From: Amphiscolops sp. MND2022
Taxonomy: Eukaryota
Assembly (NCBI GenBank): GCA_964187785.1
Contig: OZ076409.1
Location: forward strand, 69,690,001-69,754,000
Direction of reading: 5' to 3'
Length of the DNA stretch: 64,000 bases
The position numbers and the translations under genes are program-made. This document shows positions 5,916 through 50,195 of the stretch, piece by piece. The notes beneath the pieces are model-generated. The model worked only from the letters and a program-made list of their open reading frames with translations. It was not told the DNA's origin and ran no database searches. The number at the start of each line of letters is the position of its first letter. Positions within the stretch are counted from its first letter, which is position 1.

Positions 5916-6512
5916 CTAAATAGGATTGTCGTGAACGTTTAGATCGGGGTAATCTCCGTTCATTTGGTTCACATATTGTTCATTTCTTAAGCTACCTTTT
6001 GCGTTGAGATTTCGCTGAACTTCGGAATTCGGTTCTGGTCTCTCAACCGGAACGTCCCATCCCTTTCTAGTCCTGTGTCCTGATTCGGCCATTATAACAT
6101 TTTGGATTTGAGGAAGTACTTGAGTACTTATTGCATCGTTAATGGCTCTCTGTATTTGGACACTCACGGAATTCATTATCTCATCCATTTCTCGTGAAAT
6201 ACGAGAGTTCAGCTCGCTAGACAATCTGTTTATTTCAGCACTAGAATCACCTGTGATAGAATTACGATCACACTCGGCATACGTCCTAGGTTCAACATTT
6301 CCCCTAGATCCACTTCCGTTTCTGCCCTCATTATCAGACTCATTACTAGCAAAGCTTCTTGATCCTCTAGGTAGATTGCTATTCAGACTACCTTCTCTTT
6401 CTCGTGCACCAAAATGGTTTTCGCCTAACATGATATCCAGATTTTCAATATCTGATAACATCTCAAGTCCTCTAGACTTTCTAGCTTTCTTTTGCTTTCT
6501 AGTAGTTGGCAT
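5916..6512 (-). other. Duplicated N-terminal 195 codons of gag in the 3' LTR, stopping just inside flanking DNA
   Basis: Peptide identical to gag 19256-20971 up to NVHD, diverging at the LTR edge (5927). Confidence 0.9.
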
Positions 6513-7820
6513 TGAAACAATTCCGAATCAATAATGAATTAATCAATACGGAAATAACAGCGTAGCCGTTTGGAAATCAATCTTTTCTAGAACAGTACAG
6601 TATGAATTGTGTCCCGCTCAGGCTAAACACCGGTATTTATACCCCTGAGCGAGTGACACTCACATATTTTACATATTTTCATCTAAGATTGACGTCGTAA
6701 GGTATGTAATGCACTTTGATTTTTACATATTTCTGGTACATAACAAGTATGGTTTCGAAAAAGTTGCATCATAAGCATTTCCGTTTACATATTTTCCACA
6801 TCATCGGGAAACATCAATAACATATTTCTGTGAAATCCTGGTTGGGAGAGTTCCTGACATATTTGTCTCCCAAAATATAACATCAAACAATCAACATAAC
6901 GGTACTTCAAACAACGTATCTATTCTACATATTATTGCAATGTCAACAAATGTTAGCCTCGTTGTCGGAATGCGAGGCTCGTAACACTGGTATGTAGTGT
7001 TAGCACGTGCCACCACGTGGTTATAGGTCAACGTAAGGGGAAGCAAATTCAAATAATACATGTCTAATCTATTTAAATATCACTGCATCATTAAATAAGG
7101 GTATCTCTCAAAAGGGCCGAAATTGGCCAAATCCTGATTAATGGTACAATACTAGGGGGAGAAAGGGTAAAAGACCTTATTCGGCCTTTGATCAGCATTT
7201 AGTTTATTCGGTCCGTTGAGGGGTGCGTTGGTATTATTTTAATATTAAAACACCTTTGAAATGATCCCCAACTAATATGGTTAACTATAAAGTACAGATA
7301 ATACAGCATCACTCATTACATCAAGACGGCCTAAACCGGCCATTTGACCAAGGTACAAAACAATTCATGGACATTAAGTTAATTGGCCGTATTCGGCCGC
7401 TACCAAATCAAAGCTATATTGCACTTGTGAATTGAAGCGCTGTGATTGGTTGAGGGAATGAGCTCAAGTGACGTTTTTGGATTATCGCTGAGCGTCACTT
7501 GAACTCGTTTCCTATACCGCTTTACAGTTGTTTATATTAGTACTGCTTTCGATTCAATCGATTTACATTTTAACTGCACTTTCACAAAGTAGCCTAATTT
7601 GGATATCTCCAAATTGTACAATCTCTAACAGACTAATATTAACTTCATCCAAATATGAAACTGTTACATGAACATACAAAACAACAACTAATCGTTAAAT
7701 AAAACTAGTTTTTAAGGTCCATAACCTGTATTCAGTATATTGGTAGTGTACTCGGTGTCGGGTTTTGTTCTCCTGTCGCTGTAGTATAGTTATTTCCGTC
7801 ACAGGCGGCAGCCTGCGACA
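5927..7820 (-). repeat. 3' LTR of element 1 (1894 bp)
   Basis: Direct repeat of 20386-22281 with a few substitutions and one 2-bp indel; TG...CA termini. Confidence 0.96.
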
Positions 7821-8517
7821 CAGCGGGAGCAATGAAAAGTAGACAACCTGCATTCAGTCCATTTATGTACGCTTCTCGTCTCAATTTGGTGACAAATTCA
7901 GGTTCCCCGCGCGGCGTTGATCTCTCCATGTACCAATTGATCTTCTCGTTTTTAATCTCGTCCACTGATTTCCCACATACCATGCACCCAGTATATCTCT
8001 GACTGCTCAGATTGTCATGGGGTCTGGTATTTTGGATGTGGTAGGACGCATAAAACCCGCTCATTGGTGGTTGGACTAAAGGGGTATCTTGACTGGGCCC
8101 TCTTTCGTGGTCCGGCGGCGACATCGGGGACTCTAGAATCGGTAAGATTGTATTGCACAGTTCGATGCGTGACTTTTCCATCCTCTTAGGAGGGGCATAG
8201 CACCTTTCTAAGTCGAAGTACTTGTGATCCATTTTTGGCGTCTTCTCAGCATTTGCACCGGATGTGCTTGGTCCAGCCACTGACACATCTTCTTCAGGTA
8301 TCTCCGATGTCATTATCCTTCCCCCAATGAGCATAGGGCTAGATGTTACTTCTCTCTCTATCCGCGCTATCAGCTGTTCCGTGTCGGTGGAACAATCCGT
8401 CTCCCAGTCTGACGCTTCGCTCTCACTACTCGATATGTAGATTACAGATTTCTCAGAGCCGTCTGAGTCGAATTCTTCCAAGTCAAATAACTTCCTTGCG
8501 AGATTGTATTTACTCAT
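7732..8517 (-). CDS. ORF-X of element 1: 261-aa accessory protein of unknown function (acidic N-terminus, CxxC), ending inside the 3' LTR
   Basis: Homologous to 36578-37396: GGRIMT/AGRAMT, SPMSPPDHERG/TPLSPPPHEQG, CMVCGKS/CIVCGKS, LRREAY/LRRRNAF, VSQAAACDGN. Confidence 0.8.
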   Translation of the reverse strand: MSKYNLARKLFDLEEFDSDGSEKSVIYISSSESEASDWETDCSTDTEQLIARIEREVTSSPMLIGGRIMTSEIPEEDVSVAGPSTSGANAEKTPKMDHKYFDLERCYAPPKRMEKSRIELCNTILPILESPMSPPDHERGPSQDTPLVQPPMSGFYASYHIQNTRPHDNLSSQRYTGCMVCGKSVDEIKNEKINWYMERSTPRGEPEFVTKLRREAYINGLNAGCLLFIAPAVSQAAACDGNNYTTATGEQNPTPSTLPIY

Positions 8518-8884: not shown

Positions 8885-8967
8885 CCAATCAGCGTTGAGC
8901 TTTGATAAATTGTAAAATTAAATAATAAAATGGCGAAACTAATAAATCCAAATGATTCAAGATGGCG
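8885..8967. promoter_or_regulatory. Candidate internal promoter between the divergent ORF-X and antisense gene
   Basis: CCAATCAG followed by TTGATAAAT and AAAATGGC, also present in element 2 (~37793-37860). Two YY1-like AA(A/G)ATGGCG motifs. Confidence 0.4.
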
Positions 8968-13807: not shown

Positions 13808-14054
13808 TTCTGTACATATGTATTTATGTACTTACGAACTGTAAACTTTGTTGATTTTCTGTTTTGTTGCCATATTTGTATTTCCATTCTGTTTTCCTGA
13901 TTTCTTGATCCCGTTGTTTATTTTTCCTGGAAGGGATCGTTGTGAAATGTCCCATTATTTATTCAGAAAAAACTTTGCTTGGGACTGAAAAAAGAAAAAA
14001 TGAGAGTGAGAAGACACTATTCACTGCTCCTTTTCGAGCAGAATTTAATCTTCC

Positions 14055-17000
14055 CTAGTATCTGAAGTCTTCTGAGTAGTTTGGGTTAGGGTTAGGCCTG
14101 AGATTATATTTCCCTCCTCTAGGGCTCAGACTTTCATTTCTAGCATCGCTTTCGGATATTTCGGGCACGATAATATCATCCCCCCTTTTTGGAGAGTTTT
14201 GTGCATCGTTTTCATTCATTGAATTTCTTTCTGAAAAAATTTCATCATTTTCCGGTCCACCTGCCGTACTCGGCAAAGAATTTTCTTGGTTTTTTGGGGA
14301 AACGGCCGGATTCGGCCAATCAGATTTGGTATTTTCTGTCACTGCAGTAGCTTTATTTCTTTCAGTGACGTCATCATCTAAGCGTTTATTCCGGCTGTGT
14401 GCCGCGTTGTCGTTGTTTAATTCTTCTCGCGTGATTATGTAATCCGCTTCGGTCTCGTCTACGTCATTTGCATTCGTTTCCGCCGTGTTCGGCTGTTCGG
14501 CATTCGGCACGCTAGTCGGAATAGTCTCGCTGTCTCGTGTAACTAGCTGCTCTCCAAAATCTGTTTCCCACGCTATGACGTATAGGTCGTCTTGCGGGAT
14601 GACAATTTCTTCGTCTGGCTGCAGACGTTGTTCTCGGAAATTGTCCTCAAGCGGTTGATTGGGAATAAACCTTTTAAGGCGAATGCGATGCAAAATTTGA
14701 GTTTTGTTCGTATTGATCCTTCGTACTATGTAGTTTTCATTTGGCAAAACCTTTTGGACTACAAATGGTCCAACCCAACGGTAATCGCGGAATGGAATTT
14801 TTGATCCTTGATGATCCGCTTTCGGCTGTAAGACGAAACAGTAATCATTCTCTTTCAATGGAGCAGCTTTTGCTTTGCGGTCGTAATATTCTTTGTACTT
14901 GATGTACGACTGCATAATGTTCTGCTTCGTTTTGTCAATTAGGATTTTTGTCCGGTTTTGGATTTCTTCTGCAAATTCGGTTGTAGGGTTGATCTTTTCG
15001 TTTGGATTATTTCCAAGCTTGTGATCCAGAATGTTATAGGGAATTCTGCCATGGAATACTCTCGTTGGCTCACAACCAATACTGGCATGATAACTCGTAT
15101 TATGATTAAGTACTGCTAATGGCAAATATTTATGCCATTGTCGGCGGTATTCCCCACATGCCATTTTGAGGTTTGTCTTTAATGAGGCATGGGTCCGCTC
15201 TAATTTCCCAATTGTTTGCGGGTGCTTTGTCGTTGCACATTTGAGTGTAATGCCCAAAATTTGCGTAACCTCCGCAATAATCGTAGAAGTGAATGCAGTA
15301 CCCTTATCAGTAATAAGAGTCGTTGGCAGATATGCATGCTTGGTCATTATGTCAATGAGCGCTTTTGCCACATTGATCGCTGATGCGTCTGTAAGGGGAT
15401 AAGCGAATAAATATCTGGAGAAAACATCAATTGCCGTTAGGACATTTTCATACCCTCCACTTGGGGGAAGATTCGGCAATAGGTCAATCTGCATGGCGTC
15501 TTCAGGTCCAAGGTCCCATTCGGGCGAGTTGAGCAGCTCAGGTGTGATCGTTGCGTTAGGGACTCTCTTGTCTCTGGCACATTGTTCACACCCTTCTACC
15601 CACTTTTTGACGTGTTTAGCCATGCTAGGGTAGTAATACCTTTGTCTGATTTCCTGCAACATTTTTGAAATCCCGGGATGTTTATGCGCTGTCCCGTGAA
15701 GGGAGTGGAGCAATTCCCGAAGTAGGTGTTGCGGGAGCAAAATTTGATGGTATTTAACATTCCCTGTTTCATCAAAATATTGCCTCGTCAGGATTTCGTC
15801 CTTGAGTACAATTCGTTCCAGATTATTTGCATAGTGTCTATATCGGGCATCCTGTTGCAGTATGTTTTCTGAATAGTCTTCATGAAGGAGCTTTGCCTTC
15901 AATTGTTGCAATACTGCATCTTTGGACTGCTCGATGATTATCTGGTTTGTTTTCTTTAATCGGACTTGGATGCCTGGTTGTTGTTTGACCAGATTGGTTG
16001 ACAGAGTTTCTATGGTAACAGTGGGTTCATCAGTCATTGGATTTTTCCTGATTGCTTCTTTTCTTGCCCAATACTGTTCCTCTGTCTCGTCATCATCATT
16101 CGTATAGAATATTTGTTCTTCCTGTGATACCCCCGCAGATTGAACATTTATCTCAATGGGTAAAGTTTGCACGTCTTCACGGATTTTCATGACTAATTTA
16201 TCCTTCGGATCTGCCTCCAATCGGGACAAATAGTCAGCTGCTGTGTTCTGTGCTCCCGGGATATGTGCTATGACAAAATTGAATTGAATCACATAATGGC
16301 ATGCATTCCACAGGGCTGGGGGTATTATTTTCGTTTGGAAAAATCTCGTAACGGCTTTGTTGTCGGTAAGGATAATGACCGGTTTGGGCGCACCCCAGAA
16401 TATATGTCCAAATTCTTTGAATGCAAAGTAAATTGCCAGAAATTCCTATGCATATATTGACATTTTGATCTGGGCTGGGGTGAAGGTTTTTGATCCATAG
16501 GCCACCGGTGCGTAGGATTTTCGGAGAGATGTGAATTTCTGGTTTGGATCGTCTTCTATTAAGACCGCATATCCAGCTGCACCAAAACTTGCATCAGTCA
16601 TTAGTGCGATTTGTTTGTTCGGGATAGGTTGTTGTAGGGCTAAATCGCAACATTTGTCGAGTGCCTTGTTGATTTCTTCGAATTGTTGGACTAATTCTTT
16701 CGATACTAGGACCTTTTCGTCACTTTTGAGCATCTTGTAGAATGGAGCAAGGCGTTCGGATAGTCTTGGGACATAATTCCTGTAGTAGTTCAAGAATCCC
16801 AAGTAGCGCTGCAAAGCCTTTTTCGACTTTGGGACTTTGGTCTTTTCCAGAAAGTTTTGCACGTTCTGTTTCTGGGGTTTGACGCCTTGCGGGGTAATAG
16901 TCCGTCCGAGAAAATCAATTTCTTTTGCACCGAAGTGACATTTGTGCATTGTCAACTTAAGGCCTGCTTCCTGAATGCATTTGAATGTTGCTCTCAGGTT

Positions 17001-19265
17001 CGTCATGAGGTGGTCGACATCATTGGCTGCGATGCCGATATCGTCCACATACTGGGCGCACTGATCCGCTTTAATGACTTTGTCGAGGTATTCCCTCATG
17101 AAACTCGAGAATGCGGATAGTGACCGACTAAGGCCTTGTGCCAAGCGTCTGTACGCGAATGTACGACTGGCAAAATTGAAAGCCAACATTTCAATTGAGC
17201 GTTGGTCGGCCATTGGTAGGCAGTGGTATGCCTGCGAACAGTCTAATTTACAGAACAGTTTTTTGCCTGCCAAGTGTTGGGCAGCATCAACCAAGGTGCT
17301 AACAGGGTGATTATTGTTGATATAATCATCCGAGATGAGGTTATTGATTTTTCTCAAGTCAACCAAAAGTCGTAGCTTCCCATTTGGTTTCTTTTGGGCG
17401 AATATTGGGCTTGCATACTTTGAGAACGGTAGTGTGGTTATTATGCCATATTTGTGCAACATGGCTAATTCGACTAGGATGTCCTCCTTCAGATTGATAG
17501 GAGCTGGAAGGCTTTGACTATAGGCTGGGGAATCGTCCTTAGGTGTCAGTTTCACTTTGAATTCCTCGTTCATGCCTATATCAAATCGGTGTCGTGCAAA
17601 GATGTCATGGAATTCCACTAACAGTTCCTCAATTTTCTCCTTCTCTTCAGGAGTAAGGGTGGAATCTTTCCAGTCAAAGTTTTCTAAGAATTTTGCACGC
17701 GATTCTGCGTCTGTGGTGGGGTCGAGTGTCTCCAGGTCCTGTAAGGCCTGTAACTCGCGTAGGATTCGTTTTTGTATGGGTGTGTGTTCCTCAGGATTTC
17801 CAGGGTTTTCTGGAGTTGGGAACCAATAATTTTCGGAGTTTTGTGGATTTCTATTGGTTTTGATGAGACTGCTGACATAATGGGCTGCTTGCTCCTGGTC
17901 ATTCTGCAAAAGGTGCCAGGTTGATGCCGGGTCTACCGGTTTGACATACTTCATTTGTTCTGGCGTCATGACAGAGAAATTGGCAATATGTAGTCCCTTT
18001 TTGAGTTTATAAGGGTGGTCTGTGAAGTTGCTCACTGGTATCGATATATTGCCGTCATTCAGAGTGACCAAGGCTGGGCAGAATGTGATGTCGCCTTCTT
18101 CATGTAGAAGGTCGCTCGGTTGCAAAATTCCAGTGACAGCATTCTCAGGGTACAGTAGGGAATTGGTCCTAATTAGGACTCTATCATTTGGCGGAATGGT
18201 TATCTCAATGGGATTGAGAATTGGTTCTAAGACATTTGAGTATTTATGGTCAGCTGTTTTGAGCTGCATTGAGAAGAACGGGAAGTTCAGTATTCCTTGT
18301 CTCATGTCCAGAACTGTATGATTTCGTTGAAGGAACATTAGGCCGATAATCGGACCTGTCAGGTGTTCCATGACTATAAAAATCTCATGAAACTCAATGT
18401 CACCAACTTCAAATTTGAGCTCTATGGTACTCTTAGGAGTTTCCAATTGCCCATTAGCAACCATTATTTGGAAATTTGGAGGCGGACCTTCCCGGATGAC
18501 AGATTGTGGAGATAGAAGTCGAATTTTCCGGAGGTCCATTTCAGGAATTGCACTGGACAGCGCTCCAGTGTCAATAAGTCCGTCTATGGTCAATTCCCCA
18601 AAGTCCATGGGGAAGTACAACATGCGTTTTTTGCATTTGAGATTGATGTTGGTTGACAGTGGTATACAGTCTGGTTCACCGTCACTGGTGATTAAGACAT
18701 TCTGGAACTGCTTCTCGTCTTATAGTGATTGTGGTATGGGTTGAGCAACGTCTTCATGGGTCTCGGTCCCTAATGGGTTTGGGAACACTGGATGGTTGGT
18801 GCCATCATTCATTTGCCAGTTTTCAACTAGTGCTCTGGTCTTTTTATTGTGGGTGATTGGAGGGTTCTCGTGGACCGTTCTATTATAGTGCTCGATGTCG
18901 TCTAAGACATATTGGAATTGTAGTTGTTCCTGGTTGTAGATTTCTGTGTCCCAATAGGGGTCTCTGCCGTAGTCTGGATCTATGTAGGTAGGGTTGTAAT
19001 TGTCAACCAGGGGAATAGGCCTGAATCGGGTAGTGAAGGTAGTAGTATAATCAGGGTCCCAAACAGGAATTGGTTTCTGGAATAAATGGGTGTTATTGTA
19101 GGTGATGATGGTAGCTTTTTCCATCTGTTGCTGCCAGACAACAGAGGGATAGCCCATCAATTGTTGATTGTATTGGTGGAAAGTTTGCGTTGGAGGGTCC
19201 GATCTGATGTATTGTCGGACAGATATTAGTTGATTGTATTGGAGTCGTGACGAAGTTAGTTTTTT
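14055..19265 (-). pseudogene. pol: pol of element 1 (PR, dUTPase-like, RT, RNase H, integrase) with two in-frame stops
   Basis: Motifs LIDTGA, YVDD, TDASF, TDNK, H-H-C-C, D..D..E and WVGPF. One frame throughout, with TAA at 18720-18722 and TAG at 16446-16448 (Lys of SIYAKEF in element 2). Confidence 0.93.
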
Positions 19266-20971
19266 GACTCATCATTGGAAGATGAGGCCTGTGAGTTGGA
19301 AGATGTTGATTTGTTTTGTGGTTTCTGCGCCTTTGAATTGGGTTTACCGTCATTAGCGTCATCTGGTCTGGTGCGTTTGGGTTTGAGATGCGCACCAGCA
19401 CCTTGCCAACATCTTTCTTCCGGGTGGTTCTTTTTACCACAAGTGCCACACTCCGGAAACGTCTTTTTCTGAGTTTGTTTGCCTTGTTGGGCATCTTTTT
19501 CCTTTTTCTTCTTCAATTTTTCACAGTCTTTGACCATATGGCCCTTCTCCTTGCAGTAGTTGCAAGTGATGTCCGACATTTGCCCAGTAGTTAGAGGAGT
19601 CTTGGATTTTGTTGTCGAGGAGGTCATTGTGGCCATTGGTAGGTCGTCTGATTCCTCAAGGGCATTTAGTTCTAACTCTCTCTCTAAATGAGCAACTATT
19701 TCGTCATAAGAGCCGTTTTCGAGTCTGGCCATGTTTACAGACCGCTTCAGTTTTGGTGGCAGTTTTGCGTAGAGCAAACTGTCAATCATTTTCTGCGCGT
19801 GATCCCCGAATGCTTTTTCTGCCCCTTGATTTAATTCTTCAAGGAAATCTGGCAGTTTCATCGTGTTGGGATCGAAGACTAGACGGTGCCATTTATGTTT
19901 GGCAGTCGCCTGTGATTCGGGTTTGACGTATTTTCGTCTGAATATTACCAATACGTCCTCTAAAGTCTGTCTATTGCTCGAGCTGATGTTCCGGAAGGTT
20001 TGGAGAGCATTCTTCCTCAGCAGTGAGTGGAAGTGATTTATTTTCATCTGTTCCGTCATTTCCGGTTGCATCTTGATCATCGTGTGGAACAGGTCCTCAA
20101 ACAGCTCGAATTTTTCACTCTTGCCATCAAAAGTCATTGTGTTTGAATTGACTGGGCGTATAGTGAGTTGTTGGGCTGTCGGTCTATTTTGCATTGTGGT
20201 CAAGACGTCTGCCAGTCGGGTGATGGGATCGGAGTCGGCAGCCGTAGCAATTCTCTCTTGTGCTGGGATCGTCGTGTCGAGCAGGGGAAGGTCATCATTT
20301 GATCTGTTGAGATGACTGGTGGATGGTATTCGTCCCGTGAGAAACTCAGGAACTTCGATTGGAGATTCGTTTTCTCCTGTCACCATGTCGTGAACGTTTA
20401 GATCGGGGTAATCTCCGTTCATTTGGTTCACATATTGTTCATTTCTTAAGCTACCTTTTGCGTTGAGATTTCGCTGAACTTCGGAATTCGGTTCTGGTCT
20501 CTCAACCGGAACGTCCCATCCCTTTCTAGTCCTGTGTCCTGATTCGGCCATTATAACATTTTGGATTTGAGGAAGTACTTGAGTACTTATTGCATCGTTA
20601 ATGGCTCTCTGTATTTGGACACTCACGGAATTCATTATCTCATCCATTTCTCGTGAAATACGAGAGTTCAGCTCGCTAGACAATCTGTTTATTTCTGCAC
20701 TAGAATCACCTGTGATAGAATTACGATCACACTCGGCATACGTCCTAGGTTCAACATTTCCCCTAGATCCACTTCCGTTTCTGCCCTCATTGTCAGACTC
20801 ATTACTAGCAAAGCTTCTTGATCCTCTAGGTAGATTGCTATTCAGACTACCTTCTCTTTCTCGTGCACCAAAATGGTTTTCGCCTAACATGATATCCAGA
20901 TTTTCAATATCTGATAACATCTCAAGTCCTCTAGACTTTCTAGCTTTCTTTTGCTTTCTAGTAGTTGGCAT
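19256..20971 (-). CDS. gag: Gag of element 1 (571 aa, two CCHC zinc knuckles); starts inside the 5' LTR
   Basis: Capsid-like TFDGKSEKFELFEDLF region; CNYCKEKGHMVKDC and CGTCGKKNHPEERC; lies upstream of pol. Confidence 0.93.
   Translation of the reverse strand: MPTTRKQKKARKSRGLEMLSDIENLDIMLGENHFGAREREGSLNSNLPRGSRSFASNESDNEGRNGSGSRGNVEPRTYAECDRNSITGDSSAEINRLSSELNSRISREMDEIMNSVSVQIQRAINDAISTQVLPQIQNVIMAESGHRTRKGWDVPVERPEPNSEVQRNLNAKGSLRNEQYVNQMNGDYPDLNVHDMVTGENESPIEVPEFLTGRIPSTSHLNRSNDDLPLLDTTIPAQERIATAADSDPITRLADVLTTMQNRPTAQQLTIRPVNSNTMTFDGKSEKFELFEDLFHTMIKMQPEMTEQMKINHFHSLLRKNALQTFRNISSSNRQTLEDVLVIFRRKYVKPESQATAKHKWHRLVFDPNTMKLPDFLEELNQGAEKAFGDHAQKMIDSLLYAKLPPKLKRSVNMARLENGSYDEIVAHLERELELNALEESDDLPMATMTSSTTKSKTPLTTGQMSDITCNYCKEKGHMVKDCEKLKKKKEKDAQQGKQTQKKTFPECGTCGKKNHPEERCWQGAGAHLKPKRTRPDDANDGKPNSKAQKPQNKSTSSNSQASSSNDESKN
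19259..19265 (-). promoter_or_regulatory. -1 ribosomal frameshift slippery site A-AAA-AAC, element 1
   Basis: TCA AAA AAC TAA at the gag end. The -1 frame is open (KLTSSRLQYNQLISVRQYIRSDP...) and joins pol. Confidence 0.8.
20374..20385 (-). promoter_or_regulatory. Primer binding site TGGTGACAGGAG, element 1
   Basis: Starts with TGG directly after the LTR's terminal CA; the same 12-mer is present in element 2. Confidence 0.85.
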
Positions 20972-22281
20972 TGAAACAATTCCGAATCAATAATGAATTA
21001 ATCAATACGGAAATAACAGCGTAGCCGTTTGGAAATCAATCTTTTCTAGAACAGTACAGTATGAATTGTGTCCCGCTCAGGCTAAACACCGGTATTTATA
21101 CCCCTGAGCGAGTGACACTCACATATTTTACATATTTTCATCTAAGATTGACGTCGTAAGGTATGTAATGCACTTTGATTTTTACATATTTCTGGTACAT
21201 AACAAGTATGGTTTCGAAAGGTATTTGCATCATAAGCATTTCCGTTTACATATTTTCCACATCATCGGGAAACATCAATCACATATTTCTGTGAAATCCT
21301 GGTTGGGAGAGTTCCTGACATATTTGTCTCCCAAAATATAACATCAAACAATCAACATAACGGTACTTCAAACAACGTATCTATTCTACATATTATTGCA
21401 ATGTCAACAAATGTTAGCCTCGTTGTCGGAATGCGAGGCTCGTAACACTGGTATGTAGTGTTAGCACGTGCCACCACGTGGTTATAGGTCAACGTAAGGG
21501 GAAGCAAATTCAAATAATACATGTCTAATCTATTTAAATATCACTGCATCATTAAATAAGGGTATCTCTCAAAAGGGCCGAAATTGGCCAAATCCTGATT
21601 AATGGTACAATACTAGGGGGAGAAAGGGTAAAAGACCTTATTCGGCCTTTGATCAGCATTTAGTTTATTCGGTCCGTTGAGGGGTGCGTTGGTATTATTT
21701 TAATATTAAAACACCTTTGAAATGATCCCCAACTAATATGGTTAACTATAAAGTACAGATAATACAGCATCACTCATTACATCAAGACGGCCTAAACCGG
21801 CCATTTGACCAAGGTACAAAACAATTCATGGACATTAAGTTAATTGGCCGTATTCGGCCGCTACCAAATCAAAGCTATATTGCACTTGTGAATTGAAGCG
21901 CTGTGATTGGTTGAGGGAATGAGCTCAAGTGACGTTTTTGGATTATCGCTGAGCGTCACTTGAACTCGTTTCCTATACCGCTTTACAGTTGTTTATATTA
22001 GTACTGCTTTCGATTCAATCGATTTACATTTTAACTGCACTTTCACAAAGTAGCCTAATTTGGATATCTCCAAATTGTACAATCTCTAACAGACTAATAT
22101 TAACTTCATCCAAATATGAAACTGTTACATGAACATACAAAACAACAACTAATCGTTAAATAAAACTAGTTTTTAAGGTCCATAACCTGTATTCAGTATA
22201 TTGGTAGTGTACTCGGTGTCGGGTTTTGTTCTCCTGCCGCTGTAGTATAGTTATTTCCGTCACAGGCGGCAGCCTGCGACA
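20386..22281 (-). repeat. 5' LTR of element 1 (1896 bp)
   Basis: Direct repeat of 5927-7820; followed by the PBS on the minus strand. Confidence 0.96.
21093..21100 (-). promoter_or_regulatory. TATA box TATAAATA of the element 1 LTR (also 6634-6641)
   Basis: About 120 nt upstream of the gag ATG; the same octamer lies upstream of gag in element 2. Confidence 0.6.
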
Positions 22282-34873: not shown

Positions 34874-35521
34874 TTAATTCAATAAATGACCACATAAAAA
34901 CACTTGGTACAAACAATGGCTATTGTCGTGACTATTGGTCATAATGTCTTCTTCATGACCATCGTCACTAGACTGAGAGTTCTCTGAATTTCTCCTAAAG
35001 TAGTCTTGTCGACTACTGGTTGCCATATTAAGCTTTGAGTTACCTTTCCAAGCGTTTTTAACGAATTTCGCTTCGGTGGTCCTGTTAAGTCCACTGGACC
35101 TCTGGCCCACTTCTTCCCGAAACACTGGATTTTGGTTGGAAACCAAGTTTCTAATATCAGGCAAAACCTTTTCAGTGATTGCTGAATTAATGACATCAAC
35201 CAGCTGAGAATTAAGTTCTCTTCTCAGTTCATCAATTTTCTTTGTAATCTCAGAATTAACGAGCCTCATAGTCTCAACCGTCGATTCACTATTTTCTTTA
35301 CTGTTTGAGTCTAAAAGTGACCTGAAATCCTCACTATTTTGCAGTGGGTCTCCTCTAGTCCTATCTGACCCTAGGTCTATTTCACCATTCCTATCAGAGT
35401 CATTTCCTAATTCATTTCTTGGATATGATCCAAGCATTACGTCTAAGTTTTCTGTATCAGACATGATGTCTAATTGCCTAGAGCGTCTTTCCTTAGCTCT
35501 TTGCTTTCTAGTAGAAGGCAT
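34874..35521 (-). other. Duplicated N-terminal 199 codons of gag in the 3' LTR, reading ~16 codons into host DNA
   Basis: Identical to gag 48477-50195 up to NSHD. Confidence 0.9.
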
Positions 35522-36669
35522 TGAAGAAATATTTGCTCAGGTAAGAGTATATTCGAGCTTGTATCAAATATCCCAACTTGAACTGAGTATTCAAACAATA
35601 ACAGAACGATATATCACTAAAGCAGTCTACTAAAGCGAAGGTTGACTTGTAGTCTCAAAATGATTAGAACACTGATGGTGATAGATAGCGGTGAGTTGTA
35701 GGTTTGTAATCATCAATAATCGTCAAGATTCATCCCTTGGGACTAGTGGTCCCCGTATTTATAGTCCTTGCATCATGACATGCAGTAATATGTATAGTCA
35801 TGTTACTAAAATTAGCAACTTATATACTAACGTCACTATGACGTAATGCTGTCAAACTAAATATAGACACAAGTACGGGCAAAAGGCCCTGGGAAGTTTA
35901 CGTCACATGTTCCTGTAATTCTAAAATTAGCATCTCTACGTGTATTAGATCTAAAAATAGATAAAGAGGAAGGAAAATGGGGGGGAAGAGGCAGTACGCC
36001 TTTCATATTAATGACAGCAAGACTTGTGCTGAGCTCATACTTATATGCACCAATAGTATTGCACCTAGTTAAGATTAATAATCATCAAAGTAAATACACC
36101 GACAATAAGTGGACCGGCAGTCTAATATGACTTGCGTCGCCGCAAAGGCCAGCAAGTAAGTGAATAAGAAAGCTCGCATGTGATTGGCTAATTAAGGTTG
36201 CGGACTACGCGTTCGAATTGACCAACGCGGCGGACAATTCGAACGCGTTTCCTTTACCTTGCCAGTTATCTTGATTATTACAGCTACATTTCATCGATAA
36301 TTAATACTTTCTGCACTACTGGTTTACATGTAGAATACACAAGCATAAAGACGTGAATATATATATAAAGTGTACATGCGCAGTGTATAAAATCAACAAA
36401 CAGAATACAATGAATGCTATATCTATGTAATGAATACTAAAATGCAATTGGTACTACAAGTCATACTAAGACCAGTGGACCTTCGGTCCGTAATAGCATA
36501 AATTCACATTCTAATTGTTTGTGAAAAAAATAGAAGTCTTGCACTAAGTTTCCCAGCAGATCAGCGGTATACGCGGCCTAAAGTGGCAGTGTTCCTGGCA
36601 TATATCTCAGGTCGTTCTCATTCACCATCACTTGGTAGCTGTTTCCATCACAGGCGGCAGCCTGCGACA
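34924..36669 (-). repeat. 3' LTR of element 2 (1746 bp)
   Basis: Direct repeat of 49598-51343; only one substitution noticed by eye (near 36308). Confidence 0.96.
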
Positions 36670-37396
36670 CTCCCCGGGGGATGACAGTAAACGAGCCTGC
36701 AAGCATTCCTGCCTGAAAGGCGTTTCTTCGTCTGAGTCGGGTATTGTACGTCTCACCCACGAGGTGAGTCTGCTCCAAAAAATTGAAGGTGATCTCCTCT
36801 CGTATTGTTTCAAAAGACTTCCCACACACTATGCAGTCCCCAAAGGCGACTTGGTTCGGCAGCCCACACACCCCGCTGTTGCTTATGGCAATCCCAGTAA
36901 TATGTGCGTTATTGGGCTGATAAGGGAAGTCATCATCTGACCACGGGTTGCCAGCGTTATTGACATTACACCCTTGCTCGTGCGGAGGTGGAGATAGTGG
37001 GGTGTCTGGAATTGGGCTAATTCTTGCACACTCAGCAATGGGTCGCTCCTGACTGAGTCTTCTGGAATAGCTAGGAGGGTGAATGCCCAATATCTGGTCT
37101 ACAAGGTCGCTAGGGGGCTCTGTGTCCGTCTTTATTGACCTGCCATACAATTCCTCCAGTAGCGTTAAGTCATCATCGTCCGTGAATTCAGTGGTCATGG
37201 CACGTCCCGCTATCCCCAGTGGTCGAGTGGACTGAGCCTCGCTGTAACAGGCGATCACTTCTATGTCGCTGTCATAACCTTTCTCGTCTGGGGCTTTTTG
37301 TGGATCGTCCACGTCCATGTCTTCTTCCTCTGAGGATAGATAAGACAGGCTAACCAAGGGGCTAATTAAATCTTCTACTGCAAATTGTAGAGACAT
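36578..37396 (-). CDS. ORF-X of element 2: 272-aa accessory CxxC protein ending inside the 3' LTR
   Basis: Homolog of 7732-8517 in the same position and orientation. Confidence 0.8.
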   Translation of the reverse strand: MSLQFAVEDLISPLVSLSYLSSEEEDMDVDDPQKAPDEKGYDSDIEVIACYSEAQSTRPLGIAGRAMTTEFTDDDDLTLLEELYGRSIKTDTEPPSDLVDQILGIHPPSYSRRLSQERPIAECARISPIPDTPLSPPPHEQGCNVNNAGNPWSDDDFPYQPNNAHITGIAISNSGVCGLPNQVAFGDCIVCGKSFETIREEITFNFLEQTHLVGETYNTRLRRRNAFQAGMLAGSFTVIPRGVSQAAACDGNSYQVMVNENDLRYMPGTLPL

Positions 37397-43218: not shown

Positions 43219-43440
43219 TTGTACACAATGTGCACATATATAAACTTTAGACTGTAAACTATTTATCCATATTTTCTTTTGTTCTGCCAATGTTGCTTGT
43301 GGCTTTATTATTCGTCGCTAAGTCAGTTTGTCGGCACCTTATTAATTGTCATAAAGTGAAGTCAAAATAGTCCCAAGTAAAGAATACATGTCCTCAAGGG
43401 CAGAGAGAGAAAATTGGGACGTAGTAATTAAATGTTCTGA

Positions 43441-46400
43441 CTAGTATCTGTATTCTTCTGAGTAATTAGGGGTAGGGTTCGGACGGAGGTTATATCTCCC
43501 TCCTCTAGGGCTTTCATTTTCTACAATCATTTCGTCGTTTTCGCTTTCTGATACTTCGGGCACGATAGTATCGCTCCCCCCTGATGAAGTTTCCTCACCA
43601 GGAATTGAGTCATTATCGGAATCGGGCATGATTCGCTCAGGAAGAGTTTCTTCCGTCTCGTCATGTCTAGTGGACTGTAGGTCCACATCGGTCAAGATCT
43701 GATCTGGCTGGTCGAAGTTAGTATCTTCGCCGCTCGTAATTTCTGGTCGTTCAGTTGATTGCTCGTAGGTCGGTTGACGTCGAGTGGACGCGAAGTCCTC
43801 AAAGTTCGTTTCCCACGTGATTACGTAGAGATCATCTTGGGGAATGACAATTTCATCGTCTGGCTGTAAATTCCCTTCTGGGCGAACGTCCTGTAAGTCT
43901 GTATTAGGCTCATATTTTCTGAGACGTATTCTGTGTAAAATTTGCGTTTTGTTGGAATTGAGTTTGCGAACTATATAATTATCGTTTGGTAAAACTTTTT
44001 CGATAATGTAAGGGCCAATCCAACGGAATTCGCGAAATGGGATTTTTGATCCTTGATGGTCAGCTATAGGTTGTAGAATGAAGCAATAATCATTGAGTTT
44101 CAAAGGTGCTGCTTTGGCCTTTCGGTCATAGTATTCTTTGTACTTCAAATAAGACTGCATAATATTTTTCTTTGTGGAATCAATCAAAACCTGTGATCTA
44201 CGTTGGAATTCCTCAGCAAAGTCCGTGGTGGGAAGGACCTGTGGGTTTGGGTTGAGCCCCAATTTATGGTCTAAAATATTGTACGGTATGCGGCCATGAA
44301 ATATCCTTGATGGTTCGCAGCCCAACGTCGAGTGGTAGGACGTGTTGTAATTTAGGACTGCTAACGGTAAGTACTTGTGCCACTGACGTCTATACTCCCC
44401 TGAGGCCATTTTGAGGTTAGTCTTAAGACTGGCATGAGTTCTTTCTAGCTTTCCTATGGTCTGTGGGTGTTTCGTCGTCGCACATTTAATTTGAATGCCC
44501 AAAATTTGCGCAATTTCAGCTACTAACTTTGATGTGAAGGCTGATCCTTTATCGGTAATCAAAGTCGTCGGCAAATACGTATGTTTGGTCATGATGTCGA
44601 TAATGACCTTAGCGGTATTTGCAGCTGAAGCATCAGTAACTGGGTAAGCGAACAGGTAACGTGAAAAAACGTCCATGGCAGTAATAATATTTTCGTAGCC
44701 TCCGCTCGGCGGGAGGTTCGGTAATAGGTCTATTTGCATAGCGTCTTCTGGACCCAAAGTCCACTCTGGCAAATTGAGGAGCTCAGGAGTTATTAACTCA
44801 TTTGGAGTTCTTTTATCTTTTATGCAGGTTTCACATCCATTAACCCACTTGCGGACGATTTTCGCTATTCCAGGATAATAATATTTGGAACGAATTTCTT
44901 GTAACATTTTTGCAATGCCCGGATGGCGATTGGCCTTCCCGTGAAGGGATTCTAATAATTCAGTTACTAGGTGTTTTGGTAAGAGCACTTGGTTGTATTT
45001 GACAGTGCCAGTTTCGTCGTAATACTGCCTCGTGATGATTTCGTTTTGAATGGACAGTCGGTCTAGTTGGCGTAGGTAGTGCTGATATCTTGTATCTTGT
45101 ATCAAGATTGTTTCAGAATACTCTTCTTTTTGAATTTTGAGCTTAAGTTGTTGTAGTATAACGTCATTGTTTTGCTCTATAGTCACAGTGTTGGTATTGG
45201 CTAGTTTTTGACAAATGGGTAATTTTTGATAATTGCTGTGATGAGTGGTAAATTTTTGAAAAGAAATATCCGGTAATTGATTGGAAGGATTGTCTCGTGA
45301 TTTTTTCTTCCTTTGCCAGATTTGCTCTTCTGTCTCATCTTCATCGTCAGTATAGAAGATTTGTTCTTCTTCTGTGATCCCTGCTGATTGGACGTGAAGT
45401 TCAATTGGCGTAGTGGGAATATCTTCTCTGATGCGAAGAATCAATTTCTCTTTTGGTGATATTTCTAGGCGTGATAAGTAGTCTGCGGCTGTGTTGTTTT
45501 TACCGGGAATGTGTGCTATTGTGAAGTTAAATTGAATAACGTAATCACATGCGTTCCACAACGTTGGTGGTATTATCTTTGTTTGAAAAAAACGCGTGAC
45601 GGATTTGTTATCGGTCAGTATAATTACCGGCTTTGGCGTCCCCCAAAAGATGTGTCCAAATTCCTTGAAAGCAAAGAATATGGCTAAGAATTCTTTTGCA
45701 TAAATGGACATTTTCAATTGTGCGGGACTAAAGGTCTTTGACCCGTAAGCTACCGGAGCAAACGCTTTCCTCGTTGACGTATATTTTTCTTGTGGATCAT
45801 CCTCAATTAGGACTGCGTACCCAGCGGCCATAAAGCTGGCGTCGGTCATTAGGGCTATTTGCTTGTTCGGTAGCGGCTGTTTAAGTGCTAATTCACAACA
45901 GCGGTCAAGTGCTTTGTTGATATCGGTAAATTTCTCCAATAGGTCCGGTGTTACTATGACTTTTTCATCATTCTTTAATAATTTGAAGAATGGTGTTAGT
46001 CTCTCTGATAGCCTGGGAATATAGTTACGATAGTAGTTGAGAAATCCCAGGTATCTCTGCAGTGCTTTCTTTGATTTCGGGAATTTCGTGTTTTCTAGGA
46101 AATTTTGGACTCGTGGTCGCTGTGGACGTACTCCGACTGGCGTGATCGTTCGACCCAAAAAGTCGATTTCTGTCGCTCCGAAATGACATTTGTGCATTGT
46201 GAGCTTCAATCCCGCTTCGCGGATGCATTGGAAAGTGGCCCGCAGGTTCTTTATGAGTTGTTCGGCGTCATTTGCAGCAATGCCGATATCATCGACATAT
46301 TGAGCACATTGGTCAGCCTTAATAACTTTGTCAAGATATTCGCGCATAAAGCTAGAAAAGGCTGACAAAGCACGGCTGAGTCCTTGCGCCAACCTGCGGT

Positions 46401-48486
46401 AAGCAAATGTCCTGCTGGCAAAATTGAACGCTAACATTTCAATGGACCGTTGGTCCGCCATCTGCAAGCAGTGGTATGCTTGCGAACAATCTAGTTTGCA
46501 AAATAGTTTTTTGCCTGCCATATGTTGGGCTGCATCGGTCAGTGTACTGACGGGGTGATTATTGTTAATGTAATCATCCGAAATGAGATTGTTAATCTTG
46601 CGAAGGTCGACCAGCAATCTCAATTTGCCATTGGGTTTCTTTTGGGCAAAGATCGGGCTAGCATATTTGGAAAATGGGAGAGTTGTTATGATCCCATATC
46701 GTTGTAATAGCGCCAGTTCTACGAGGATATCTTCCTTGAGGTTAATAGGCGTTGGTAGACTTTGACTATAGGCCGGGGAATCGTCTTTTGGGGTTAATTT
46801 GACCTTGAATTCCTCGTTCATGCCTATGTCGAATCGATGTCTAGCGAATATATCATGGAATTCGACTAGCAAATTTTCAATGCGTGTAATCTCATCTGAT
46901 TGCAGCATAGAATCTGTCCAATCGAAGTTGGCCAGGAATCGTCGTCTGGACTCAGGGTCATCCTGAGGATTGAGCTTCTCTAGCTCTTGTAGATTCAGGA
47001 GTTCGGTGAGAATGCGCTTTTGTATCGGCGTATGTTGTTGTGGATCCCCGGGGTCTTCCGGAGTGGGAAACCAATAGTTTTCCCGAAAATCTTCTGGCTT
47101 AGAAGATTTAATCAAGCTGCTAACGTAAAATGCAGCATTTTCAGGATTGTCCTGCAAAAGGTGCCATGTGGTCACCGGATCTATAGGTTTGACATACTTC
47201 ATCTGTCCTGGGGTCATGACAGAGAAGTTGGCGACGTGAGAACCTCTCTTGAGAGTATAAGGGTGGTCGGTAAAGTTATTCAGGTGAAATTCAACTTGAC
47301 CGGAGGTCAATGTGACCAGTGCCGCGCAAAAGGCGATGTCTCCATCTTCAGTGAGGGCATTGCTCGGTTGTAATATGCCAGTAACGGTGGTATCATCGTA
47401 CATCTGGGAACTTAACGTGACTAGGTGTCTATCATTTGGTGGTATTGTGATGTCCTCCTGTGTACAGATAGGCTCCATGACGTTTGTGTACTTATGATCC
47501 GCTGTTTTCAATTGCATGGAGAAAAATGGGAAATTTAGAACTCCCTGTCTCATGTCCAGTATGGTGTTGTTTCGTTGCAAGAATGAAAGGCCAATCAACG
47601 GACTTGTTAGTTTCTCCATTACAATGAAAATTTCGTGAAATTCTATATCGCCGACCTCAAATTTAAGTTCGACGGTGCTCTTCGGAGTTTCCAGCTGCCC
47701 ATTAGCTACCATTATCTGGAAGTTGGGTGCTGGGCCCTCTTTGACAATAGACTGAGGGGCTAATAATCGGATTTTACGTAGATCAGCTTCGGGGATTGCA
47801 CTAGATAGGGCACCCGTGTCTACAAGGCCGTCTAATGTAAGTTCGCCAAAATCCATGGGAAAATAGAGCATACGTCTTTTGTATTTGAGTCCAAGATTGG
47901 TTGTGAGCGGAACATAATCTGGCTCGCCATTTCTGGTAACCAGTGTGTTTACAAATCTTGCCTCGACGGCTGACGTCAGAGAGACTTGTGGTCCAAAAGA
48001 ATTGAATTTGGTGTCTGGTTCTTCCTGTGTTGGTAGGACACAGGAATTGGTGTTTGCTTGCCAGGGGTCTACTAGAGCTATGGTCAAGGTATGGTTTAGA
48101 GCCCTGTCTGTCATGGGACAGTCGGGTTCAATTTCAGTTTGAGGTTTGTTAAAGTTTGCGTAAAATTGCAGCTCGTGTTGATTGTAGATTTGAGCGTCCC
48201 AGTAGGGGTCAATGCCGTAGTCGGGGTCAATGTAATAAGGGTTATAGTCAGGTATTAGAGGAAGGGATCGAATATAGTCCGTAGTCGAGGTAAGTCTGTC
48301 GGACCTGTGGTCCGAAGTGCAAAATTGAGTAGGAGTATTTCTCATTTGCTGCTGCCAGTCAGCCGATGAGGTTTTCTTTAGTGAAGAATAATATTCAATA
48401 TAAAATACGGTAGAAGGGTCAGAGATTATATACTGTCTAATTCGTAACTTTCCATTAAATTGGAGTCGTGGCAAATCTAGTTTTTT
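43441..48486 (-). CDS. pol: Pol of element 2 (~1680 aa): N-terminal extension, PR, dUTPase-like, RT, RNase H, integrase with GPY/F
   Basis: Single open frame with LVDTGA, YVDD, TDASF..E..TDNK, H-H-C-C, IDLL..TDKG..KLER and WIGPY. The listed start is TTG, not AUG, consistent with entry by frameshift. Confidence 0.95.
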   Translation of the reverse strand, partial: KKLDLPRLQFNGKLRIRQYIISDPSTVFYIEYYSSLKKTSSADWQQQMRNTPTQFCTSDHRSDRLTSTTDYIRSLPLIPDYNPYYIDPDYGIDPYWDAQIYNQHELQFYANFNKPQTEIEPDCPMTDRALNHTLTIALVDPWQANTNSCVLPTQEEPDTKFNSFGPQVSLTSAVEARFVNTLVTRNGEPDYVPLTTNLGLKYKRRMLYFPMDFGELTLDGLVDTGALSSAIPEADLRKIRLLAPQSIVKEGPAPNFQIMVANGQLETPKSTVELKFEVGDIEFHEIFIVMEKLTSPLIGLSFLQRNNTILDMRQGVLNFPFFSMQLKTADHKYTNVMEPICTQEDITIPPNDRHLVTLSSQMYDDTTVTGILQPSNALTEDGDIAFCAALVTLTSGQVEFHLNNFTDHPYTLKRGSHVANFSVMTPGQMKYVKPIDPVTTWHLLQDNPENAAFYVSSLIKSSKPEDFRENYWFPTPEDPGDPQQHTPIQKRILTELLNLQELEKLNPQDDPESRRRFLANFDWTDSMLQSDEITRIENLLVEFHDIFARHRFDIGMNEEFKVKLTPKDDSPAYSQSLPTPINLKEDILVELALLQRYGIITTLPFSKYASPIFAQKKPNGKLRLLVDLRKINNLISDDYINNNHPVSTLTDAAQHMAGKKLFCKLDCSQAYHCLQMADQRSIEMLAFNFASRTFAYRRLAQGLSRALSAFSSFMREYLDKVIKADQCAQYVDDIGIAANDAEQLIKNLRATFQCIREAGLKLTMHKCHFGATEIDFLGRTITPVGVRPQRPRVQNFLENTKFPKSKKALQRYLGFLNYYRNYIPRLSERLTPFFKLLKNDEKVIVTPDLLEKFTDINKALDRCCELALKQPLPNKQIALMTDASFMAAGYAVLIEDDPQEKYTSTRKAFAPVAYGSKTFSPAQLKMSIYAKEFLAIFFAFKEFGHIFWGTPKPVIILTDNKSVTRFFQTKIIPPTLWNACDYVIQFNFTIAHIPGKNNTAADYLSRLEISPKEKLILRIREDIPTTPIELHVQSAGITEEEQIFYTDDEDETEEQIWQRKKKSRDNPSNQLPDISFQKFTTHHSNYQKLPICQKLANTNTVTIEQNNDVILQQLKLKIQKEEYSETILIQDTRYQHYLRQLDRLSIQNEIITRQYYDETGTVKYNQVLLPKHLVTELLESLHGKANRHPGIAKMLQEIRSKYYYPGIAKIVRKWVNGCETCIKDKRTPNELITPELLNLPEWTLGPEDAMQIDLLPNLPPSGGYENIITAMDVFSRYLFAYPVTDASAANTAKVIIDIMTKHTYLPTTLITDKGSAFTSKLVAEIAQILGIQIKCATTKHPQTIGKLERTHASLKTNLKMASGEYRRQWHKYLPLAVLNYNTSYHSTLGCEPSRIFHGRIPYNILDHKLGLNPNPQVLPTTDFAEEFQRRSQVLIDSTKKNIMQSYLKYKEYYDRKAKAAPLKLNDYCFILQPIADHQGSKIPFREFRWIGPYIIEKVLPNDNYIVRKLNSNKTQILHRIRLRKYEPNTDLQDVRPEGNLQPDDEIVIPQDDLYVITWETNFEDFASTRRQPTYEQSTERPEITSGEDTNFDQPDQILTDVDLQSTRHDETEETLPERIMPDSDNDSIPGEETSSGGSDTIVPEVSESENDEMIVENESPRGGRYNLRPNPTPNYSEEYRY

Positions 48487-50195
48487 GAGTTTTTTAATAT
48501 TGAGGTGGATTGTTTATCCTTGGTCTCGTTTTGTCCAGGGGACGCTTCGTCTTGTTTGGCGTCCTCCAGTTTGAGGTTCTTGGGCTTGAGGTGGGCTCCG
48601 GCGCCTTTCCAACACCGTTCCGCCGGGTGATTTGTTTTGCCGCAAGTCGGGCATTTAGGATATTCTTTTTTAGTATCCTGTCCGTCGTTGCGCCTTTGTT
48701 CCTCCTTTCGTTTGAGTTTCCTGCAGTCGTCTTTGACGTGGCCAGGTTTTTTGCAATAATTGCAAGTGATATTGGGATCAATGCCCGATGAAAGGAGGCC
48801 AGTGCCCGGTCGTGTTGCTGTAGGGGCAGTGGACATTGTAGGTACTGGAATGTCGTCACCTCCCTCAAGTCCATTAAGCTCAAGTTCACGTTCTAAATGA
48901 GTGACAATTTCCTCGTACGATGCATTTTCAAGTCTTGCCATATTGACGGATCTTTTGAGTTTTGGAGGCAATTTGGCGTACAATAGGCTGTCTATCATAG
49001 CTTGAGCGTTCTCACCGAACGCTTTTTCTGCACCCTGATTCAATTCTTCAAGGAAATCGGGCAGTTTCATAGTGTTTGGGTCAAACACGAGTTTGTGCCA
49101 TTTGTGTTTGGCAGTTGCTTGGGATTCTGGTTTGACGTATTTGCGTCTGAAGACTGCAAGTACATCCTCCAAGGTCTGCCTATTAGCGGTGCTGATGTTG
49201 CGGAAAGTTTGTAGGGCATTCTTCCTCAACAAAGAGTGGAAATGGTTGATTTTCATGGTCTCGGTCATTTCCGGTTGCATCTTTACCATAGTATGGAAAA
49301 GATCTTCGAAGAGTTCAAATTTCTCCGATTTGCCATCGAACGTCAATGTAGTAGTGCTGACAGGTCTTACCATCAGTGTCTGCGTTGATGATTTGTTGTT
49401 CATTCCGACCAGCACATCTGCAAGACGCCTAATGGGGTCTGAACCATCGTTGACGTCTGTCTCCTGAACCGGAGGGACATTTTCTAAGGTTTGAATTCGT
49501 GGGGAATGGGAATTTTGTGTTTCTTCGCGGGAATGCATGGGCCGTCCAGTAAGGAATTCAGGAACCGTACGAGGGGTAGGTTTGGCTCCTGTCACCATGT
49601 CGTGACTATTGGTCATAATGTCTTCTTCATGACCATCGTCACTAGACTGAGAGTTCTCTGAATTTCTCCTAAAGTAGTCTTGTCGACTACTGGTTGCCAT
49701 ATTAAGCTTTGAGTTACCTTTCCAAGCGTTTTTAACGAATTTCGCTTCGGTGGTCCTGTTAAGTCCACTGGACCTCTGGCCCACTTCTTCCCGAAACACT
49801 GGATTTTGGTTGGAAACCAAGTTTCTAATATCAGGCAAAACCTTTTCAGTGATTGCTGAATTAATGACATCAACCAGCTGAGAATTAAGTTCTCTTCTCA
49901 GTTCATCAATTTTCTTTGTAATCTCAGAATTAACGAGCCTCATAGTCTCAACCGTCGATTCACTATTTTCTTTACTGTTTGAGTCTAAAAGTGACCTGAA
50001 ATCCTCACTATTTTGCAGTGGGTCTCCTCTAGTCCTATCTGACCCTAGGTCTATTTCACCATTCCTATCAGAGTCATTTCCTAATTCATTTCTTGGATAT
50101 GATCCAAGCATTACGTCTAAGTTTTCTGTATCAGACATGATGTCTAATTGCCTAGAGCGTCTTTCCTTAGCTCTTTGCTTTCTAGTAGAAGGCAT
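48477..50195 (-). CDS. gag: Gag of element 2 (572 aa, two CCHC knuckles); starts inside the 5' LTR
   Basis: CNYCKKPGHVKDDC and CPTCGKTNHPAERC; capsid region nearly identical to element 1. Confidence 0.93.
   Translation of the reverse strand: MPSTRKQRAKERRSRQLDIMSDTENLDVMLGSYPRNELGNDSDRNGEIDLGSDRTRGDPLQNSEDFRSLLDSNSKENSESTVETMRLVNSEITKKIDELRRELNSQLVDVINSAITEKVLPDIRNLVSNQNPVFREEVGQRSSGLNRTTEAKFVKNAWKGNSKLNMATSSRQDYFRRNSENSQSSDDGHEEDIMTNSHDMVTGAKPTPRTVPEFLTGRPMHSREETQNSHSPRIQTLENVPPVQETDVNDGSDPIRRLADVLVGMNNKSSTQTLMVRPVSTTTLTFDGKSEKFELFEDLFHTMVKMQPEMTETMKINHFHSLLRKNALQTFRNISTANRQTLEDVLAVFRRKYVKPESQATAKHKWHKLVFDPNTMKLPDFLEELNQGAEKAFGENAQAMIDSLLYAKLPPKLKRSVNMARLENASYEEIVTHLERELELNGLEGGDDIPVPTMSTAPTATRPGTGLLSSGIDPNITCNYCKKPGHVKDDCRKLKRKEEQRRNDGQDTKKEYPKCPTCGKTNHPAERCWKGAGAHLKPKNLKLEDAKQDEASPGQNETKDKQSTSILKNSKN
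48480..48486 (-). promoter_or_regulatory. -1 ribosomal frameshift slippery site A-AAA-AAC, element 2
   Basis: TCA AAA AAC TAG at the gag end; the -1 frame gives KLDLPRLQFNG, which is the pol frame. Confidence 0.8.
49586..49597 (-). promoter_or_regulatory. Primer binding site TGGTGACAGGAG, element 2
   Basis: Abuts the 5' LTR end; identical to element 1. Confidence 0.85.

Follow-up and report, generated by a model that had tools for sequence, protein, structure and literature searches.

Family descriptions usually take the LTRs of retrotransposons to be non-coding, and the same assumption is made when insertions are dated by LTR divergence. In the retroviruses, the HIV nef, MMTV sag, and foamy-virus bel2 ORFs run into U3, and in the copia element Ty1 gag overlaps the LTR by approximately 40 nt of its roughly 334 nt. 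For Ty1 of Saccharomyces cerevisiae, excerpts of published work place the PBS inside the GAG frame (PMC4974528), the transcription start in the LTR at +238 (10.1101/176248), and an unstructured part at the N-terminus of Gag (PMC4599808). The ICTV profile of the Metaviridae gives non-coding LTRs, a U5 of 75–250 nt, and a PPT of about ten purines (PMC7879559); the non-coding LTR and the short U5 describe typical members rather than demarcate the family, and the two elements described below depart from them. In the literature searched, no report was found of a gypsy LTR overlapped by gag over several hundred bases, although Repbase, GyDB, or supplementary files may note such cases. No such overlap appears in the portions consulted of PMC4402516, PMC4350172, PMC3095310, PMC5408684, PMC6317226, PMC2774666, PMC10309623, and PMC4202319, and the supplements of PMC6317226 could bear on the question.

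The window analyzed here, a 64,000-nt stretch of Amphiscolops sp. MND2022 (contig OZ076409.1, positions 69,690,001–69,754,000), harbors two full-length LTR retrotransposons of approximately 16 kb each, E1 (5927–22281) and E2 (34924–51343), both on the minus strand. Their LTRs, likewise read on the minus strand, measure about 1.9 kb in E1 (5′ LTR, 20386..22281, 1896 nt; 3′ LTR, 5927..7820, 1894 nt) and 1.75 kb in E2 (5′ LTR, 49598..51343; 3′ LTR, 34924..36669; 1746 nt each), and begin with TGT and end with ACA. The two LTRs of E1 differ at 8 of 1896 positions (99.6% alike) and those of E2 at 1 of 1746, and the elements are flanked by the 5-bp target duplications ATCCT (E1) and ATAGC (E2). Given these near-identical LTR pairs, termini, and duplications, E1 and E2 are recent, normal integrations. 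Two direct LTRs, TG...CA ends, and a target-site duplication are also Metaviridae features, as are the protease–RT–RNase H–integrase order found by Pfam in E2 pol and a Gag that combines a retroviral-type capsid with a CCHC nucleocapsid. By pol order, Gag, and LTR structure, E1 and E2 are Ty3/gypsy (Metaviridae) elements. Placement in the Pseudoviridae (Ty1/copia) was rejected because the integrase does not precede RT, and the best match to a solved structure is Ty3-G Gag-Pol (E 8e-46).

The pol gene of E2 (43441..48345, minus strand) is open and encodes protease, RT, RNase H, and integrase, with a weak dUTPase-like match (PF00692, E 0.004) at residues 293–376, between protease and RT. In-frame stops split the pol region of E1 (14055..19157, minus strand) into three ORFs (18720–19157, 16446–18623, and 14055–16190) despite an open gag and 99.6%-alike LTRs; this could reflect a recent hit or a copy mobilized in trans. 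In both elements pol lies in the −1 frame relative to gag, and the heptamer AAAAAAC is found just 5′ of the gag stop. Heptamers of this kind are an established basis for inferring −1 frameshifting, and Gag-Pol is predicted to arise in this way at AAAAAAC.

The gag frame of both elements opens inside the 5′ LTR. E1 gag (19256..20971, minus strand) encodes 571 aa, residues 1–195 of which are LTR-encoded, and E2 gag (48477..50195, minus strand) encodes 572 aa, with residues 1–199 in the LTR. The start codons at 20971 (E1) and 50195 (E2) correspond to LTR positions 1311 and 1149, and an in-frame stop precedes each by 18 nt. From gag start to LTR end there are 586 nt in E1 (195 codons plus one base; 20386..20971, minus strand) and 598 nt in E2 (199 codons plus one base), approximately the first third of Gag. 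The last LTR base and the first two bases of the putative PBS then form an in-frame ATG (20384..20386 in E1, codon 196; 49596–49598 in E2; both minus strand) within the shared sequence HDMVTG. The putative PBS itself (20374..20385 in E1 and 49586..49597 in E2, minus strand) abuts the LTR as 12 nt that begin with TGG, are identical in E1 and E2, and are translated as gag codons; its primer may be a Leu-type tRNA. Self-priming was considered and dropped, as neither element contains a complement of at least 9 nt. The first-pass annotation had described a gag whose start codon is about 590 nt before the LTR end and whose frame continues across that end and the PBS, with 195 and 199 LTR-borne codons, an ATG formed by the terminal A and the PBS TG, and the N-terminal motifs MPTTRKQ..SDIENLDIMLG (E1) and MPSTRKQ..SDTENLDVMLG (E2) in the LTR-encoded part; the mapped LTR borders and translations bear out each of these points.

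All four LTRs in the window keep this frame open. The 3′ LTR of E1 carries an ORF (5916..6512, minus strand) for the same 195 Gag residues plus 3 from flanking DNA, that of E2 an ORF (34874..35521, minus strand) for 199 Gag residues plus 16 from flanking DNA, and the two differences between the E1 LTRs that fall inside the frame are both silent. When the bases of either LTR part were shuffled 20,000 times, no shuffled sequence was free of stops (mean 13–14 stops), and the five other frames contain 5–37 stops. Like Ty1, E1 and E2 thus have a gag frame that starts in the LTR and contains the putative PBS. In contrast to the copia element Ty1, these are gypsy elements in which the overlap spans 586–598 nt, more than ten times the approximately 40 nt of Ty1, covers a third of Gag including a conserved predicted helix, and is joined by coding sequence at the U3 end. 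With canonical Metaviridae they share the order of LTR, putative PBS, gag, and pol, the PR–RT–RH–IN order, the CCHC nucleocapsid, and the capsid fold; they differ in their coding LTRs, a predicted R+U5 of 680–810 nt, and, in E1, the lack of a purine tract.

Substitutions between E1 and E2 indicate that the LTR part of gag is under selection as protein. Across the whole LTR part pS is 0.78, that is, saturated (0.74 in shuffled sequences), and pN is 0.45, whereas 300 alignments of codon-shuffled controls made in the same way gave a pN of 0.58 ± 0.03 with a minimum of 0.52. Constraint is concentrated in two blocks, residues 1–33 (pN 0.25) and 90–140 (pN 0.42), with pS of 0.83–0.84 in both; the linkers 34–89 and 141–192 show little or none (pN 0.67 and 0.55). 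For the capsid core the values are pS 0.85 and pN 0.08, and silent sites are saturated throughout, the junction excepted. The same blocks are visible in 102 full-length homologs, with mean identities of 0.88 and 0.83 for the two blocks, 0.51 and 0.53 for the linkers, and 0.97 for the capsid. When neutral decay to 55–65% identity was simulated, only 3–13 of 600 frames stayed open and no block structure appeared. At the DNA level, blastn between the E1 and E2 LTRs yields no more than four brief alignments (34, 26, 47, and 20 nt), of which the strongest pair lie at the coding 5′ end of the LTR and at the gag ATG, while tblastn aligns residues 1–140. The first-pass view that the LTR-encoded N-termini are conserved as protein is therefore upheld by pN/pS.

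The E1 Gag can be divided into a basic tip, a predicted helix (residues 88–144), a capsid (about residues 275–440), and a zinc knuckle (residues 469–483). Residues 275–440 match the capsids of Arc, PNMA2, PEG10, Copia, Ty3, and retroviruses (Z 9–10). The zf-CCHC domain falls below the Pfam cut-off in E1 and E2 and is detected in 16 of 48 aligned relatives, and the whole Gag matches CCHC and Gag clusters in the ESM Atlas. Because the capsid lies wholly downstream of the junction, the LTR supplies an N-terminal domain in the matrix position and not the shell. Neither Pfam nor the ESM Atlas returned a usable match for LTR-encoded residues 1–195, most of which are predicted to be disordered. A fold model built from 48 sequences contains a 57-residue helix at 88–144 (pLDDT 85–92), with residues 1–87 and 145–245 at low confidence; a first model from 2 sequences (pLDDT 40) had been discarded, its structural matches being meaningless. 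The fold matches of the helix are generic long helices only, and no clear heptad period was found in it. This predicted helix would likely serve in oligomerization. The basic tip would likely be involved in nuclear or RNA targeting, for which a model, by analogy only, is the Gag N-terminus of Schizosaccharomyces pombe Tf1, where a short stretch drives nuclear import (according to a portion of PMC7175516).

The layout is found well beyond this window. Among 8000 candidates, E1 Gag has 3009 homologs (clusters); the best 120 are all ENA proteins, and 102 of them align from within the first ten residues onward. For the 198-aa product of the E1 3′ LTR there are 1036 homologs among 1136 candidates. 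In 105 of the best 120 the likeness to Gag ends right after D195; of the others, 10 run on into gag, 3 carry a different residue at this place, and 2 stop before it. In 104 of these 105 proteins the residue following D195 is N, T, S, K, R, I, or M (background 0.44, P ~2e-36), which is explained if its A-initial codon starts with the terminal A of the LTR. By this signature, the short homologs that stop at D195 come from 3′ or solo LTRs whose frame runs on into host DNA. Because ranking favors intact ORFs, counts from these ranked searches are not intact fractions. An unranked sample of 154 members from 11 clusters comprised 60 full-length proteins, 37 products of 3′ or solo LTRs, 26 cut internally, 4 cut in the LTR part, 17 that start later, and 10 short at both ends. 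Of the 77 members intact to the C-terminus, 74 include LTR-encoded codons, 60 begin at M1, and 10 are called from M18.

More divergent relatives show the same arrangement. Capsid start motifs are found in 48 of 150 representatives at 50% identity; 29 of the 48 have at least 60 residues ahead of the motif, and 20 of these contain MVTG. A capsid tree was built from 24 of 25 hand-chosen sequences, of which 15 have a residue before the junction Met, 6 start at it, and 3 lack the motif. The preceding residue is D, H, or N in all 15, as an LTR ending in xAC-A requires, and the six that start at the junction Met are scattered among extended relatives. Starts at the junction Met or M18 may stem from the choice made by the gene caller, from copies that are broken, or from lineages that truly start there. 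In distant subfamilies (capsid 47–86% identical), where the LTR border is deduced from the protein sequence alone, long representatives carry 114–223 residues before the junction motif and have basic tips with 4–8 K/R among the first 15 residues; some of these extensions can be aligned with E1 and others cannot. Judged from these protein comparisons the coding-LTR layout is family-wide, and it is real, selected, and lineage-wide, a variant of a layout known on a small scale in Ty1. In five related Gags (P0247, P0343, P0278, P0273, and P0262) the junction motif is present two or three times in tandem, which suggests duplicated att/PBS units kept in frame. The viral contigs searched contained no relative, and a metagenome scan returned one 1162-nt contig that begins downstream of the junction and is therefore uninformative.

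A likely TATA box, TATAAATA, is located 129 nt 5′ of the gag ATG in E1 (21093..21100, minus strand) and 242 nt 5′ of it in E2 (50430..50437, minus strand). Of the 6 copies of the motif in the window, 4 are at this LTR position. No ATG separates TATAAATA from the gag ATG in E1; in E2 two upstream ATGs intervene, opening frames of 6 and 27 codons. The context of the first gag ATG is weak in both elements (T at −3, C at +4). A hairpin around the TATA box was significant in E1 (z −3.5) and not in E2 (z −0.7), and was dropped as a candidate. The reading frame inside the LTR, together with its conservation as protein, makes a Gag start there likely, and we consider it probable that the frame opening about 590 nt inside the LTR is translated from its first ATG on an RNA that starts approximately 30 nt past the TATA box. 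Transcription would then begin near window position 21070 in E1 and 50405 in E2. The leaders would measure about 100 and 210 nt, respectively, and R+U5 about 680 and 810 nt. On this placement of TATAAATA, 86% (E1) and 74% (E2) of R+U5 would be coding; this and the protein-level constraint on the LTR part are in line with the first-pass suggestion that R/U5 is largely coding. Scanning ribosomes would produce one Gag with an LTR-encoded N-terminal domain of basic tip, acidic linker, and long helix, and Gag-Pol would follow by the −1 frameshift. Since reverse transcription would copy U5 into both LTRs, every 3′ or solo LTR would inherit the promoter, the start codon, and 195 codons reading into host DNA.

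Of what had been proposed earlier, a second, shorter Gag from the junction ATG found no support. Such a protein (~375 aa, capsid plus nucleocapsid) would be made alongside the long form through an internal promoter, splicing, shunting, or internal entry, and we regard this as unlikely. The junction ATG does have a strong context in both elements (purine at −3, G at +4), M196 is retained in 119 of the best 120 homologs, the downstream position of the entire capsid and the tandem junction motifs of some relatives are compatible with a separate product, and Ty1 provides a precedent in p22, made from an internal transcript (described in a portion of PMC4599808). However, codons 194–199 carry no silent change between E1 and E2, and this identity at the DNA level amid saturated silent sites indicates that the Met is fixed by the integrase att site and by tRNA pairing. 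Across CA|TGG, a stop closes one of the three frames, and ATG necessarily appears in one of the remaining two. As the Met is forced by att and PBS DNA, its conservation is no evidence for a second isoform. Leaky scanning to this codon is implausible, given the 16 (E1) and 12 (E2) ATGs that lie between it and the first ATG, three per element in strong context. No internal TATA box or splice acceptor ahead of the junction, and no splice pattern across it, was found to be common to E1 and E2, and none of the 154 unranked members is called from M196, which counts for little since callers prefer long ORFs. The junction Met would instead be a by-product of the integrase att site (..ACA) meeting the tRNA-complementary TGG, and may mark the ancestral start from which gag was extended upstream.

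A different position for the RNA 5′ end would also alter the protein. Around the gag ATG, 24 of 26 nt are identical between E1 and E2 (20950–20975 and 50174–50199, minus strand) despite silent saturation elsewhere, which hints at a cis element, possibly a start site. Were transcription to start at or just after the first ATG, with TATAAATA acting mainly as a poly(A) signal, translation would begin from M18/19 or M28; the LTR would then lack the basic tip in its product but remain coding. The conserved bases include four upstream of the ATG that resemble an initiator, the 10 members called from M18 would agree with such a start, and a dual TATA/poly(A) role has been proposed for some elements (in a portion of PMC3601003). 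Yet codons 8–17 of the basic tip differ silently while its protein sequence is conserved, the tip recurs in distant subfamilies, and residue 18 is Met in only 52 of the best 120 homologs, so that we hold a start this late to be very unlikely. The idea that the open LTR frame is a neutral by-product or an assembly artefact and that gag truly begins at the junction could appeal to the predicted disorder and the missing Pfam and Atlas matches of the LTR part, but is barely credible and largely refuted by the shuffles and decay simulations, by the pN/pS contrast with codon shuffles, and by a frame that is open in four window LTRs and about a hundred listed relatives.

A candidate poly(A) signal, AATAAA, is present in E1 (20688..20693, minus strand) within gag codons 93–95. 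It is absent at the matching place in E2, which has only variants such as AGTAAA, and 114 of the best 120 homologs have EIN at this site, a sequence compatible with AATAAA. Either R would extend approximately 400 nt into the transcript, with the 5′ copy of the signal needing suppression, or TATAAA could also act as the poly(A) signal, in which case R would be tiny and the LTR part of gag would fall entirely within U5. This latter arrangement would explain how U5 could become coding.

The opposite end of the LTR is coding as well. A 3′ accessory ORF in each element reads through the PPT position and into the 3′ LTR, by 89 nt in E1 (7732..8517, minus strand, 261 aa) and by 92 nt in E2 (36578..37396, minus strand, 272 aa). 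With about 90 nt of U3 read in this way, both LTR ends are coding, and coding bases total 675 of 1896 in E1 and 690 of 1746 in E2 (36–40% of each LTR). The two proteins are 30% identical over 227 aa and have no Pfam match, and the motif that crosses from the PPT position into U3 is found in 94 of the best 120 homologs. An envelope gene, as in Errantivirus or other env-bearing elements, was considered and rejected, the best 19-residue hydropathy being 1.5 and 1.05 and Pfam returning no match. The frame resembles nef, sag, and bel2 in crossing the PPT position into U3; unlike these retroviral genes, it has no Pfam match and enters U3 by only about 30 codons. No canonical polypurine tract precedes the 3′ LTR (7821–7850 and 36670–36700, minus strand), there being none in E1 and six purines in E2 at a site that is coding. 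Plus-strand priming nevertheless works in some way, as both elements integrated with normal ends.

Coding constraint thus extends over more than one third of each LTR and affects both of its ends, in a lineage that has been very successful (3009 clusters matched). With such a layout, U5 and the strong-stop DNA would be unusually long, and poly(A) addition and plus-strand priming would be arranged in a non-standard way. Solo LTRs scattered through the genome would each carry an intact Gag-fragment frame opening into host DNA. The LTR could be a self-contained cassette of promoter, start codon, and 195-residue Gag N-terminal domain, expressed by 3′ or solo LTRs as fusions to the following host sequence; the truncated Gags would use the long helix to bind full-length Gag and so damp transposition at rising copy number, and new LTR–host fusion genes would be seeded across the genome. 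We put this forward as a doubtful proposal drawn from sequence. With intact frames in solo LTRs, LTR-borne restriction or gene birth is testable with ordinary RNA and ribosome data.

Other features of the window lie between or outside the genes discussed above. Long antisense coding regions are found between pol and the 3′ ORF in both elements (9581–13807 and 38868–43218, plus strand). They are alike in several frames over approximately 3.7 kb, at 31–50% identity, have no Pfam match, and include a Cys/His zinc-finger-like stretch near the end of the first antisense ORF; the region is probably a spliced gene. A MULE-type transposase fragment (PF10551) is located at 394–1242 (minus strand), with a related stretch at 61551–62188. 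A dispersed repeat of approximately 500 nt, present in both orientations and 75–90% alike, is found at 4223–4751, 26982–27505, 31312–32027, and 32952–33718.
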